The notes under the pieces are model-generated. The model ran no database searches. It was given only the letters and a program-made list of their open reading frames with translations, and had not been told where the DNA came from. The translations under genes were made by a program, and so were the position numbers. DNA of 45,041 nt from a virus (taxonomy: Duplodnaviria > Heunggongvirae > Uroviricota > Caudoviricetes), in the IMG/VR virus record IMGVR_UViG_2802429245_000013, one strand, 5' to 3'. Below, piece by piece: positions 3,660-45,041 of the stretch. Position 1 is the stretch's first letter, and the number at the start of each line of letters is the position of its first letter.

Positions 3660-3788
3660 CCGAACAATGTCGGGAGGGCGACGAATACAACACCCGAAAG
3701 GGGAATAAGTCCGCGGCCTCACTGAGCCGTTTCGAACCTCCCGGCTCCACTCCGATAGTGGAAATTCGAAAAAATCAGTGAGGTCGTT

Positions 3789-4358
3789 ATGACAATACAA
3801 TTAATCCCCGTTTTCAACGGAACTATCTCAAACGAAACCGCCCTACTCTGTAATGCTCGTGATCTGCACGCTTTTCTTGGTGTAGGTAAGGTTTTCGCTG
3901 CCTGGATTACATCCCGCATCGCAGAATACGGATTTACAGAAAATCAAGATTACATTTTGCTTTCCAAAACAGGAAAGCAATCGTTAGGAGGCAGAGGAGG
4001 ACATAACCGCAAGGACTACCACCTCACCCTAGACACTGCCAAAGAGCTGGCAATGGTCGAGCGCAACGAAAAAGGACGCCAGATCCGCCGATACTTCATC
4101 GAGTGCGAGAAGAAGCTGCGCGAAGATACCACCAGCACACAATCCCCTCTGAATGTTGACATCATCATGCGCGTCAGAAACGGCTCGGTTACCCACATTG
4201 AGCACCACAAATCAGGCTCAGTTATCACCACAGAATGGGCAATTCACTTACTACGCAAAAGTGGATGGATTGTCATGCCACGCGATGAACTTCTTAACAC
4301 GCCACTGGCCCAACTGATGCCCGAAAATTTGACTCAAACCGGAACCTGCGTCCGGTAA
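3789..4358 (+). CDS. AntA/AntB-type phage antirepressor-like protein, 189 aa
   Basis: ORF track; N-terminal region ...ALLCNARDLHAFLGVGKVFAAWITSRIAEYGFTENQDYILL... resembles AntA antirepressor domain; opposite strand to surrounding tail genes; RBS GAGG 5 nt before ATG. Confidence 0.55.
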   Translation: MTIQLIPVFNGTISNETALLCNARDLHAFLGVGKVFAAWITSRIAEYGFTENQDYILLSKTGKQSLGGRGGHNRKDYHLTLDTAKELAMVERNEKGRQIRRYFIECEKKLREDTTSTQSPLNVDIIMRVRNGSVTHIEHHKSGSVITTEWAIHLLRKSGWIVMPRDELLNTPLAQLMPENLTQTGTCVR

Positions 4359-26546: not shown

Positions 26547-26621
<75 letters not shown>

Positions 26622-26624
26622 ATA

Positions 26625-26700
<76 letters not shown>

Positions 26701-29008: not shown

Positions 29009-29164
29009 TTACTCCTCAGGTTCGTAAGCTGTGAAGACAGCGACCTCCGTCTGGCCGGTTCGGATTCGTACCTCGCAGAGGTCTTTCCTCGTTACCAGTG
29101 CCGTCACTATGACGGTTAAACAGATGACGATCAAGGCGATTAACATCGCCTTTTGCTGCTTCAT
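29009..29164 (-). CDS. hok: Hok/Gef family type I toxin (HokD/RelF-like), 51 aa
   Basis: Translation MKQQKAMLIALIVICLTVIVTALVTRKDLCEVRIRTGQTEVAVFTAYEPEE is a canonical Hok-family sequence (single TM, conserved C-terminal periplasmic part). Confidence 0.85.
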   Translation of the reverse strand: MKQQKAMLIALIVICLTVIVTALVTRKDLCEVRIRTGQTEVAVFTAYEPEE

Positions 29165-29222
29165 AGCCTGCTTCTCCTTGCCTTTCGGCACGCAAGAGGC
29201 TAATCTTCAGTTGTCGAGACAT
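29016..29222 (-). CDS. mok: Mok-like overlapping reading frame (translation coupled to hok)
   Basis: ORF 29016..29312 in a different frame overlapping hok almost completely and ending 7 nt from hok stop, as in hok/mok/sok loci; start uncertain. Confidence 0.4.
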   Translation of the reverse strand: MSRQLKISLLRAERQGEAGYEAAKGDVNRLDRHLFNRHSDGTGNEERPLRGTNPNRPDGGRCLHSLRT

Positions 29223-29435
29223 AAGACTGGCCTCACTTCGATTTATAGTCGGGTGGGGCTTTTCTCTATCTGCCTTTTGGTGTTCATGCCCGAGGCAGAT
29301 AGCCTCAAGCACCCGCAGTAATTCTACTTAACTCTCCTTTTCCCGCAAACCGTTTTTATCCCCATCGGCAAATCGAATACACAACCAGCGCCACCGCCAG
29401 TGCAATTCCTACCGTTGTGAATGCTTCAGGCCAGG

Positions 29436-42438: not shown

Positions 42439-42501
42439 TATTGACTTTGGCGGTGTAGCCTCACCGCCATCACAAAATTTTATTATATGAGAGAAAAGAC
42501 A

Positions 42502-42696
42502 ATGCGGTATGAAAAAGTCAAACCATGTCCGTTTTGTGGTTGTCCATCAGTAACGGTGAAAGCCATTTCAGGATATTACCGCGCAAAGTGTAACGGATGC
42601 GAATCCCGAACCGGTTATGGTGGAAGTGAAAAAGAAGCACTCGAAAGATGGAATAAACGAACCACTGGAAATAATAATGGAGGTGTTCATGTATAA
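42502..42696 (+). CDS. ralR: RalR (Lar) restriction-alleviation protein / type I toxin, 64 aa
   Basis: Translation MRYEKVKPCPFCGCPSVTVKAISGYYRAKCNGCESRTGYGGSEKEALERWNKRTTGNNNGGVHV recognised as RalR. Confidence 0.8.
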   Translation: MRYEKVKPCPFCGCPSVTVKAISGYYRAKCNGCESRTGYGGSEKEALERWNKRTTGNNNGGVHV

Positions 42697-42877
42697 AATT
42701 ACCGCCACTATTGAAAAGGAAGGTGGCACTCCTACTAACTGGACAAGATATTCAAAATCTAAACTAACGAAATCAGAATGCGAAAAAATGCTCTCAGGGA
42801 AAAAAGAAGCAGGCGTTTCCAGAGAGCAGAAAGCAAAACTGATAAATTTTAATTGCGAGAAACTTCTGTCATCGTGA
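42689..42877 (+). CDS. ydaC: YdaC-like protein, 62 aa
   Basis: ORF 42617..42877 trimmed to MYKITATIEKEGGTPTNWTRYSK... with RBS GGAGG 5 nt upstream; overlaps ralR end. Confidence 0.55.
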   Translation: MYKITATIEKEGGTPTNWTRYSKSKLTKSECEKMLSGKKEAGVSREQKAKLINFNCEKLLSS

Positions 42878-42983: not shown

Positions 42984-43265
42984 ATGAATCTTGTGACACT
43001 CAAAACGTGGGGAAAACTCAGATATCCGGATAACCCACCATCAATATCAACGCTGAGACGATGGGCAAGGAATGGAAACATTTATCCTGCACCTGAACTA
43101 CACGGGAGGAGTTACAGGGTGGTTCCGGAGGCTTTCTATATCAACCCAAATAAGGTTGATACCGATATAACACACCATCAACCTAATGGGCGACAAGGGA
43201 GAGACAGTCCGTTACTGGAGAAGTTAAAACATGCAGCGGAAAAAATACGATCCCAATTTGCCTAA
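42984..43265 (+). CDS. xis: Excisionase (Xis), about 93 aa
   Basis: ORF 42909..43265 trimmed to Met with RBS AAGAGG; ...TLKTWGKLRYPDNPPSISTLRRWARNGNIYPAPEL... resembles lambda Xis; overlaps int start by 35 nt. Confidence 0.6.
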   Translation: MNLVTLKTWGKLRYPDNPPSISTLRRWARNGNIYPAPELHGRSYRVVPEAFYINPNKVDTDITHHQPNGRQGRDSPLLEKLKHAAEKIRSQFA

Positions 43266-44307
43266 AAACTTAACATATCGAAGGAGGGACAAAGCATATT
43301 ACTGGCGCAACCCTCTGACGAAAGAAGAATTTACACTAGGTAAAATTTCAAGGAGAGATGCAGTAGCGCAGGCAATTGAAGCAAATCATTATATATACAA
43401 AAACTACTCTCCTGCAGCCTTAATTGAAAAGCTTAAAGGGTTCGACTCATTTACTATGGCAGACTGGATTGAACGTTACAAAACGATTCTTATAAGGAGA
43501 AAAGTGTCCAGAAATACTTATAAAATTCGGATAAATCAACTGGAGACAATAAAAGAAAAATTGGGAGGAATTTTACTGACAGAAATAACCACTCGCCATA
43601 TTGCCGAGTTTCTTGATTTGTGGATTGAAGGAGGGAAAAACACAATGGCAGGATCAATGCGTTCTGTGTTGTCTGATATGTTTCGCGAGGCCATTGTTGA
43701 AGGACGTATATCTCAAAATCCAGTAACGCCAACAAGAGCACCGAAAATAGTAGTTACAAGAGAACGACTGAAACTAAAGACATACAACTGCATCAGGGAG
43801 GCAGCAGATCAACTTCCGGCATGGTTCCCATTAGCTATGGATTTAGCCCTTGTAACAGGACAACGTCGCGAAGACATAACGAATATGCGGTTCAGTGATA
43901 TTTATGATGATCGTCTCCACATCAGGCAAATTAAGACAGGAATGATGATTGCTATCCCCCTGTCACTCAGCCTTCCTGTCGCTGGTCTACGGCTTGGTAC
44001 AGTAGTTGAACGGTGCCGCCTGGTAAGCCGGGGAGATTATCTAATCAGTGCCGGGATTAGAAAAAACAGCCCTGACGGCAGCATTCACCCGGATGGCCTG
44101 ACAAAAAAATTTGTCGCAGCCAGAAAATTAACAGGTATCCAGTTCAGTGAAAACCCACCAACTTTTCACGAGATCAGAAGTCTGGCTGGACGATTGTACA
44201 AAGAAACATGTGGAGAAGAATTTGCCCAGCGCCTACTTGGTCACACATCGGAGAAGACAACAAAAATGTATCTTGATGAGCGAGAAAAAACGTACTTACT
44301 GCTCTGA
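43231..44307 (+). CDS. int: Integrase, lambda-family tyrosine recombinase, 358 aa
   Basis: N-terminus aligns with lambda Int by eye ([38 protein letters not shown] versus MGRRRSHERRDLPPNLYIRNNGYYCYRDPRTGKEFGLG); C-terminal [11 protein letters not shown]...[13 protein letters not shown] catalytic region. Confidence 0.85.
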
Positions 44308-44354
44308 TTTTAACGTAAATGGATTGTTAAATGTATATTGGTTGTGATATAACC

Positions 44355-44472
44355 AAAAAAGACCGGAATACAGAAATTCGAGTAAATTTCGGGGGATTTC
44401 GGGGAGATGCTTGCAACTAATTGATTTTAAATACAATTAAAAAGAGACCGAATACGATTCCTGTATTCGGTC
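44355..44472. repeat. att-region repeats: three copies of GACCGAATAC(A/G) (one inverted, forming a 10-bp-stem palindrome) plus tandem TTTCGGGG(G/A)
   Basis: 44361-44373 gaccggaatacag; 44446-44472 gaccgaatacgattcctgtattcggtc; 44386-44406 atttcgggggatttcggggag. Confidence 0.4.
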
Positions 44473-44616
44473 CAGGGAAATGGCTCTTGGGAGAGAGCCG
44501 TGCGCTAAAAGTTGGCATTAATGCAGGCTTAGTTGCCTTGCCTTTTAAGAATAGATGACGACGCCAGGTTTTCCAGTCCGCGCGTAAAGTGGTCAGAAAA
44601 AAAGCGCGTTTATCAT

Positions 44617-44660
44617 CCTCTAAAATGTTAAAAACCGCCCGTTCTGGTGAAAGCACCCGG
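44617..44660. terminator. Bidirectional rho-independent terminator ending the host gene
   Basis: AAAAA-CCGCCCG...CGGGCGG-TTTTTTATTT; downstream of minus-strand host ORF. Confidence 0.5.
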
Positions 44661-44699
44661 GCGGTTTTTTATTTAAAATCAAAAAATTACTATAGATAA

Positions 44700-45041
44700 T
44701 TAACAGAGTCTCTCAGCTCTTTCAATAAACGGTGCCAGACTCACTTTTTCACCTGGTTTATTGGGATCATCAATCTGGATCACCGAAATGGGCTGGGCTT
44801 TAGTCTTCCCGCTGGCTACTTCCTTTTGTGCGATATCGTTTAAAGGATACTGTACCAGGGTACTTGGGTTAATGACATACAAAGCATTGCCCGGACGACA
44901 GGTCAGCATCACCTCTTCGCGATTAAACGCCCATTTGTCTTTACCCATTTCAAAACGGCTGACGGTAATCACCTGCGGAGCCGCCAACGCCGCTGCCGAA
45001 CTGGTGAGTAACAGAAACGCCAGAATACTTTTTTTCATCAT
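44700..45041 (-). CDS. Host small secreted protein with signal peptide, 113 aa (possibly YebY/DUF2511-like)
   Basis: ORF track; signal peptide [22 protein letters not shown]; lies outside prophage beyond the int-proximal att region; family name is recollection only. Confidence 0.45.

Follow-up and report, generated by a model that had tools for sequence, protein, structure and literature searches.

We analysed a 45,041-nucleotide DNA stretch (hereafter the window), recorded in IMG/VR as the Caudoviricetes sequence IMGVR_UViG_2802429245_000013, and focused on the region between its integrase gene int and the adjoining host DNA. Positions 44308-44472 very probably constitute the int-proximal junction of a prophage of the lambda integrase (Int) family, lying inside the terminator hairpin of the host small RNA (sRNA) gene sdsR, also named ryeB. 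In lambda nomenclature this junction corresponds to attL, with the P' arm, the overlap and then the host half-site. The target was known before for a phage, and the case is clear but ordinary and overturns nothing in current understanding. The window adds to this target a further host (an Escherichia approximately 90% identical to E. coli) and a detailed map of the phage attachment site (attP).

The palindrome at the junction is the SdsR terminator

An earlier reading of the window, made from the sequence only, had noted three copies of a decamer between the int stop codon and a host terminator, one of them inverted to form a palindrome, together with a tandem repeat, and had proposed an int-proximal attachment region without a tRNA target. 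The int open reading frame (ORF) indeed ends just before 44308, and the lambda-type int, the core and the arm repeats described below agree with an attachment region. The 45-kb window contains exactly two copies of the decamer GACCGAATAC, at 44446-44455 (plus strand) and 44463-44472 (minus strand), and these two exact copies are the inverted pair. The supposed third copy, at 44361-44372, reads GACCGGAATACA, with a 1-nt insertion (an extra G) relative to GACCGAATAC, and was not recovered as a copy in the window search, even with one mismatch. In the predicted fold the two exact copies pair over 11 bp and enclose a 7-nt loop; on the minus strand a T-run comes after the hairpin.

Rfam matched SdsR/RyeB over the palindrome on the minus strand and SraC/RyeA on the plus strand, both over the full model and against thresholds of 38 and 37 bits, respectively (scores in Table 1). 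This identifies the 10-bp palindrome (44446-44472) as the Rho-independent terminator of SdsR, and the palindrome is also the recombination core. Integration thus took place inside the bidirectional sRNA locus sdsR/ryeA identified by Rfam, not into or beside a protein-coding locus as had been supposed. The absence of a tRNA target was confirmed: ARAGORN and Rfam found no tRNA or tmRNA at the junction, and such a target was ruled out, since the only tRNAs of the window lie at 26547-26700 (minus strand), inside the prophage, which carries there two tRNAs of its own (Gly-TCC and Thr-TGT).

The host flank is approximately 90% identical to E. coli, and a match to the host part is found in every one of the 5,426 complete E. 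coli genomes. In prophage-free E. coli genomes the match starts at window position 44438, and 228 genomes also match the int end and the arm. Alignment with an empty, K-12-like pphA-yebY intergenic region likewise showed host similarity beginning at TAAAAAGAGACC. A likeness between the arm and the host ryeA leader in a MAFFT alignment was dropped, as it consisted of short AT-rich matches unsupported in other lineages.

The other prophage end, attP and the empty site

An exact look-up of the YebY protein gave 6 empty and 4 occupied sites among the places shown with a host flank identical to that of the window. In the window's own species the empty bacterial site (attB) has the sequence ...ATAGATAAAAAGAGACCGAACAC-GATTCCT-GTATTCGGTCC...; its similarity to the window starts at 44438, and from 44454 onward the two are 100% identical. 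The expectation of the sequence-only reading that the core would recur outside the window is supported. Within the window a pattern search and blastn-short (44250-44620 against the rest) found no second core copy, only chance 9-12-mers. Lysogens of the same species and of E. coli carry that copy where the prophage meets the pphA side. One of them, the E. coli genome NZ_CP148426, has its prophage inserted between pphA and yebY, with TAAAAAGAGACCGAACACGATTCCTGT(A/T)TTCG at both ends. A search of IMG/VR with the far arm yielded 36 host-flanked pphA-side junctions in which the core is duplicated, and two of these belong to genomes with a yebY flank 99.8-100% identical to that of the window.

An intact attP is present in PP818812.1 (pPE4), in Tbat2_3 and in contig L086, in each case with the same type of int-proximal arm, the core and then a different far arm. 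In pPE4 the int-proximal arm is essentially that of window 44308-44437 and is followed by the core TAAAAAAAGACCGAATACGATTCCTGTTTTCG, and the far arm is identical to the pphA-side junction of the E. coli lysogen. attP has GTTTTCGTCA where the window has the host half-site GTATTCGGTC. Judging from the pPE4 alignment, the missing prophage end should lie approximately 4.1 kb beyond window position 1, and the prophage measures roughly 48 kb. For this genome the left end is predicted to read ryeA promoter (TATGGT)...GATAAAAAGAGACCGAACAC-GATTCCT-GTTTTCGTCAAC... far arm, beside pphA, and the predicted attB is GACCGAACAC-GATTCCT-GTATTCGGTC.

PP818812.1 is named 'Actinobacillus phage vB_Apl-pPE4', with A. 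pleuropneumoniae given as host, and is 87-97% identical to 31.5 kb of this prophage (window 1-44469). It carries an sdsR-type attP, and its host label looks doubtful. Four IMG/VR contigs (L109, L112, L116 and L118) have attP-like junctions of int arm, core and far arm embedded in longer sequence, suggestive of tandem elements or of circular forms at this hot spot.

Position of the crossover

Two polymorphic positions bracket the exchange. Position 44453 is T in the window and in attP-like sequences, and among 66 int-side junctions it is T in 62 and G in 4. The pphA-side junctions with a host flank (36 of 36) have C at the equivalent position, as do the three empty sites read. At 44465, 65 of the 66 int-side junctions and the empty sites have A, and attP and the pphA-side junctions have T. 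The exchange therefore occurred within the 11 bp of 44454-44464 (ACGATTCCTGT). In the Yersinia attP (L086) the identity with sdsR stops directly after GATTCCT. The core as a whole spans 44438-44469, the 3' end of SdsR being at 44439. A 7-nt loop between 10-bp stem arms is the layout of a lambda-type core, in which inverted half-sites surround the overlap, and the loop GATTCCT (44456-44462) is our candidate for that overlap.

With the exchange placed within 44454-44464, the apparently perfect palindrome of the window is chimeric: the phage supplied the left arm (T at 44453) and the host the right arm. The last 15-25 nt or so of sdsR, comprising the U-tract and the 3' half of the terminator stem, are supplied by the phage. 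In the host's own left arm (GAACAC) the C at the position of 44453 makes a G-U pair in the RNA stem, which the phage T turns into A-U. The U-tract is longer in many relatives, with AAAAAAAG in place of AAAAAGAG. Through the T at 44453 and the lengthened U-tracts, the 3' end of SdsR, its Hfq-binding region, is subtly altered by lysogeny.

Integrase, excisionase and their relatives

Int aligned with the lambda Int structures 5j0n and 1z1b (E 3.5e-72, residues 8-353) and retains the catalytic R-K-H-R-H-Y residues, its TGQR, KTG, HEIR, LGH and MY motifs aligning with R212, K235, H308/R311, H333 and Y342 of 5j0n. Pfam recognised Arm-DNA-bind_1 (PF09003, 28.1 bits, cut-off 22), Phage_int_M and Phage_integrase (61.7 bits), and the N-terminal domain matched the lambda Int N-domain chain 1kjk (E 4e-4). 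Among characterised integrases, those of HK022 and lambda come closest, with 39-41% identity over the full length. The excisionase (Xis) belongs to the Exc family of Pfam (52 bits).

Relatives were scanned with one genome per species, which gave 18 relatives with 48-94% Int identity, from Shigella/E. coli, Citrobacter, Scandinavium, Buttiauxella, Rahnella, Rouxiella, Yersinia, Serratia and Erwinia. SdsR and SraC lie 80-140 bp downstream of int in 17 of the 18 loci, the remaining locus being an unscanned fragment, and the whole integrase clade is therefore sdsR-specific. The L086 contig, with its intact attP, is additional to these.

Some relatives are degraded. Locus L137 (CP025979.1, GCA_002900365.1; 3235-5221) has a YebY identical to that of the window and, at the same site, a truncated int (266 amino acids) beside an IS3-family transposase. 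Locus L078 (Shigella flexneri CP182556.1, approximately 3700-3810) has a mutated sdsR terminator, GACCAACATGATTCCTGTATTGGGTCC, with SdsR scoring 81 bits against approximately 115 elsewhere, and an IS3-type frameshift element (ALIL) upstream; it is a decaying lysogen.

Probable arm repeats and a candidate site for integration host factor

The tandem repeat noted earlier exists, as two copies of TTTCGGGG at 44387 and 44397. By itself TTTCGGGG is not enriched in the window (2.0 occurrences expected, 3 present), and the significance of both repeat sets comes from comparison across sequences, not from counts within the window. Together with the upstream AAATTCGAG the TTTCGGGG tandem forms a triplet of WTTCG motifs (W, A or T), of which the tandem represents two thirds. 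Three tandem WTTCG motifs stand at -70, -59 and -49 (+/-1) from the start of the phage-side half-site in 20 of 20 sequences, and only two other occurrences were found anywhere in the compared arms. The far arm of the free or intact attPs (pPE4, L046, L086 and Tbat2_3) carries two more, at +135 and +156 (+136 and +158 in Tbat2_3). These far arms are otherwise not alignable, and the Int proteins of L086 (Yersinia) and Tbat2_3 are 64% and 50% identical, respectively, to that of the window. In total there are thus five sites, arranged 3+2 over approximately 240 bp. The arms of contigs L112, L116 and L118 have two WTTCG repeats, not three.

The four bases after TTCG vary between phages (GAGG, GGGG, GGAG, GGAC, GTGT, GATA) but not within any one phage, and their variation is paralleled by that of Int residues 19-23 (NDKA, RDKA, GSKS, xRxT, xYKS, VQLT). 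At matched identity of the rest of the protein, Int residues 17-24 are 66-88% identical between phages of the same repeat class and 32-43% identical between phages of different classes. The conserved, presumably DNA-binding N-terminal part of Xis is unchanged across repeat classes. This combination, repeats varying with Int residues 19-23 while the Xis N-terminus stays constant, favours the Int N-domain as the reader of the repeats, and the WTTCG repeats are probably true Int arm-type sites. The sequence-only reading had proposed Int arm-type or Xis or integration host factor (IHF) sites for all its repeats; TTTCGGGG remains a good arm-type candidate, and the palindrome is instead the core and the sdsR terminator.

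At 44414-44426 the minus strand matches the IHF consensus perfectly, this being one of only three matches in the 45-kb window. Other lineages with a long arm have a perfect or near match in the same place, and those with a short arm have WATCAA on the plus strand. The sequence TTGCAA-15-TACAAT (44411-44437) was considered as a substitute ryeA promoter and dropped, the spacer being too short and the hexamers unconserved in divergent arms.

The core-like copy in the arm and a promoter-like element

The imperfect third copy belongs to a conserved pseudo-core. In 18 of 19 lineages the motif AAAGACCGRATAY adjoins the first arm repeat on its 5' side, approximately 86 bp from the true half-site, and where the arm is short it overlaps the int stop codon. 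Its sequence tracks the invariant core half-site, not the repeat class; a fourth, inverted arm-type site was considered for it, and no co-variation with repeat class was seen. It may represent a relic, a reserve copy of the 3' half of the sdsR terminator or an additional core-type site for Int. One relative, L011 (IMGVR_UViG_2728369554_000022), has lost by deletion exactly the stretch between the pseudo-core and the true core, and with it the three arm repeats and the IHF match. The event resembles recombination between two copies of AAAAAGACCG..AATAC, and the prophage is probably locked in place by it.

Upstream of the pseudo-core, the long-arm lineages (L063, L064, L066, L080, L082, L092) all retain TGnTATAA(C/G/A) while the neighbouring bases diverge. 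Terminators and promoters were called by a consensus scan which demands T at position 6 of the -10 hexamer, and with this requirement the scan made no call for the element at 44324-44353. The same scan called no plus-strand terminator between int and the core. Given this and the conserved TGnTATAAC, a phage-driven, RyeA-like transcript is possible. We consider it unlikely that the int-proximal arm serves as a promoter substitute, by which the prophage would replace the ryeA promoter and a chimeric RyeA-like antisense RNA would reset the toxin/antitoxin-like balance of SdsR and RyeA, as well as pphA, with the pseudo-core as an extra Int site or a back-up terminator half. If true, this would represent a built-in rewiring of an RpoS-dependent host sRNA circuit across the Enterobacterales.

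Alternative explanations

The sequence-only reading took the GACCGAATAC copies as arm, Xis or IHF sites, with a protein-coding target and the core elsewhere. It could point to three similar decamers between int and host DNA, to the lack of a tRNA and to the conservation across lineages of the copy located in the arm. However, two of the three copies are the SdsR terminator and are also present in empty sites, and they lie inside a conserved host gene, a situation which that reading itself had taken to speak against it. In addition, the crossover maps between these two copies, the flanking host feature is an sRNA pair and not a coding sequence, and it is the WTTCG repeats, not the decamers, which co-vary with the Int N-domain. 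We regard this explanation as highly improbable. It is also very unlikely that the WTTCG triplet consists of sites for Xis or another accessory protein in place of the Int N-domain. Three direct repeats at 10-11 bp spacing do resemble the X1-X1.5-X2 array of lambda Xis, and whole-protein Xis identity is somewhat higher within a repeat class. Against this, the int-proximal arm of lambda contains Int sites and not Xis sites, and the N-terminal Xis segment TLRRWARNGNIYP... is essentially the same in GAGG, GGAG and GATA phages, whose Int residues 19-23 change (L080 compared with L092, for example). Moreover, further copies of the motif stand at conserved distances on the far arm, in agreement with the five arm-type sites known from lambda (PMC4880445). 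There is, finally, only a small chance that the prophage is defective and its repeats are decaying remnants without current function. Degraded relatives exist (L011 without its arm sites, L137 with its truncated int and insertion sequence, L078 with its mutated sdsR terminator), and one prophage end only is contained in the window, but int, xis, the three repeats, the IHF match and the core are all intact here and nearly identical to those of the pPE4 attP (96% over int and arm), with 31.5 kb of the window aligning with pPE4.

Several observations weigh against a lambda-like junction in the sdsR terminator as we describe it. The left junction of this genome lies outside the window and was seen in relatives. 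The first repeat, AAATTCGAGT, differs from the other two (TTTCGGGG). The co-variation between repeats and Int is partly confounded by phylogeny and has an exception, since L092 and the L085 group share GATA repeats and differ at Int residues 19-23. The IHF match shifts in strand and position between long-arm and short-arm lineages. Every protein-DNA assignment proposed here is drawn from comparison. The polymorphism bracket is strong but not absolute, because NZ_CP148426 has the host-type C at the equivalent of 44453 on its int side and junction L059 has the phage-type T at the equivalent of 44465.

Proposed mechanism and predicted consequences for the host

For a prophage integrated in the sdsR terminator, we propose that the C-terminal domains of Int would act on the two stem arms as inverted half-sites (phage GACCGAATAC at 44446-44455 and host GTATTCGGTC at 44463-44472), with strand exchange across the 7-nt loop GATTCCT (44456-44462). 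The N-terminal domain would occupy the three WTTCG repeats present here (44374-44405) and the two on the far attP arm, and an IHF-type bend at 44414-44426 would join arm to core.

After integration sdsR is complete and its terminator folds normally, because the phage brings its own copy of the last 25-32 nt or so of the gene. In E. coli the ryeA -10 box (TATGGT) is located approximately 44 nt to the pphA side of the core, as deduced from primer positions and the empty-site sequence; RyeA is approximately 261-270 nt long, and pphA is read through from the sdsR promoter (PMC6610125). In the window's species the ryeA promoter is found at the other prophage end (L110). Integration thus carries the sigma70 ryeA promoter, the 5' leader and pphA to the far end of the prophage, leaving the antisense ryeA body after int, and pphA is separated from the sdsR promoter. 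The same arrangement in the phage PhiW104 is reported to lower ryeA and raise ryeB transcription (PMC7380047). By analogy with PhiW104 in Salmonella, lysogeny plausibly shifts the expression of RyeA, SdsR and pphA.

For annotation, the palindrome is corrected to a host sRNA terminator that is half phage, and the target to sdsR/ryeA. The analysis also provides a testable lambda-like attP map, with five candidate arm sites, a candidate IHF site and a candidate 7-nt overlap, for a clade that extends from Escherichia to Yersinia, Serratia and Erwinia. The natural series in which Int residues 19-23 change with the arm-site sequence may be useful in studying or re-engineering specificity.

Features of the region

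The coordinates are collected in Table 1. The host terminator mentioned by the sequence-only reading is readable by eye as a hairpin with a T-run at 44635-44670, and the consensus scan gave no call there.

Table 1 Features of the int-proximal junction and its surroundings (window positions)
Feature	Position	Strand	Evidence
xis (excisionase, 93 amino acids)	42984-43265	+	Pfam Exc PF07825; same gene annotated excisionase in E. coli lysogen
int, lambda-type heterobivalent tyrosine integrase, 358 amino acids	43231-44307	+	ORF; alignment with lambda Int structure; Pfam
Hypothetical promoter-like element facing the core: TTGTTA (44324-44329), 18 nt, TG-n-TATAAC (44345-44353)	44324-44353	+	Sequence reading
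Pseudo-core AAAAAAGACCGGAATACAG, resembling core half-site	44355-44373	+	Comparison across lineages
Candidate arm-type repeat 1, AAATTCGAGTA, WTTCG offset -70	44374-44384	+	Same offset in 20/20 sequences
Candidate arm-type repeat 2, AATTTCGGGGG, offset -59	44385-44395	+	Offset conservation; tetranucleotide co-variation with Int residues 19-23
Candidate arm-type repeat 3, GATTTCGGGGA, offset -49	44395-44405	+	Offset conservation; co-variation with Int
IHF consensus match AATCAATTAGTTG (WATCAANNNNTTR)	44414-44426	-	Located between arm repeats and core
Phage-supplied core part: complement of SdsR U-tract, TAAAAAGA, and half-site GACCGAATAC (44446-44455)	44438-44455	+	Empty-site similarity from 44438
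GATTCCT, SdsR terminator loop, candidate 7-bp overlap	44456-44462	.	Junction polymorphisms
Host-side core half-site GTATTCGGTC	44463-44472	+	100% identical to same-species empty sites from this position on
sdsR (ryeB), complete	44439-44538	-	Rfam RF00111, 116.4 bits, model positions 1-100
sraC/ryeA body and terminator, without its own promoter and 5' end	44435-44670	+	Rfam RF00101, 175.3 bits at 44435-44579
Terminator-shaped host hairpin, presumed ryeA terminator (and yebY terminator on the other strand)	44635-44670	.	Stem CCGCCCG/CGGGCGG, then T-run
yebY, host gene, 113 amino acids	44700-45041	-	ORF; E. coli annotation; Pfam YebY in loci with same-species flank

Elsewhere in the window, the minus strand at 42695-42873 encodes the RalA antitoxin sRNA (Rfam, 218 bits), opposite small ORFs (42487-42877, plus) that match Lar (restriction alleviation) and DUF1187. 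The prophage also carries the sok antitoxin RNA of the hok/sok type I toxin-antitoxin system at 29159-29314 (minus). An Rfam match to sRNA-Xcc1 is located at 3669-3753 (plus), adjoining a 189-amino-acid ORF (3789-4358).

Comparison with known systems

A literature search returned nothing specific on prophages at yebY/pphA or at an sdsR attB in E. coli. The sdsR/ryeB site is listed in a survey of integration sites (PMC3603311), and 'RyeB' is used as a site name in island catalogues (PMC10111431). According to two sources citing Balbontin 2008 (J Bacteriol 190:4075), the att site of PhiW104 comprises the final 23 bp of ryeB and lies within ryeA, whose 5' part is replaced (PMC7380047, PMC3603311). 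Locus and sub-site are thus shared with PhiW104, and its 23 bp, AAAAAGAGACCGAATACGATTCC, fall inside the core found here (44438-44469). The host of PhiW104 is Salmonella, whereas here it is the Escherichia described above. The Int proteins of L063, L064 and L066, which are 75% identical to that of the window and come from contigs with Salmonella-like divergence in the host flank, may be of the PhiW104 type.

With the tRNA and tmRNA integrases the prophage shares a crossover in the hairpin loop of an RNA gene, stem arms serving as half-sites and restoration of the 3' end of the gene by the phage, but the hairpin here is the intrinsic terminator of an sRNA and not a tRNA arm. Integrases of the anticodon-loop class, reportedly described by Williams in 2002 (cited in PMC3603311), exchange strands within the 7-nt loop of a symmetric stem. 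The Rac prophage of E. coli K-12 sits at ttcA. The early region upstream of att is of the Rac type, with the order recE-recT-ralR-rcbA-xis-int and the RalR/RalA toxin-antitoxin pair, and differs in that the module here ends in an sdsR-specific integrase.

In lambda, phage and host share a core identity of 15 bp, compared with 25-32 bp here. We know of no lambda counterpart of the extra, conserved core-like copy in the arm. The repeat found here, WTTCGNNN, also differs from the lambda arm consensus, and the target is an sRNA terminator, in contrast to the gal-bio intergenic attB of lambda. The lambda site has five arm-type sites (3+2), IHF sites and inverted core sites around a 7-bp overlap within approximately 240 bp (PMC4880445). 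Shared with lambda and HK022 are an Int of 39-41% identity with the same three domains and catalytic residues, and an Exc-family Xis just upstream. At the level of sequence the layout of lambda is shared as well, with five arm-like repeats (three int-proximal and two distal), inverted core half-sites around a 7-nt candidate overlap and, separating arm from core, a candidate IHF site.

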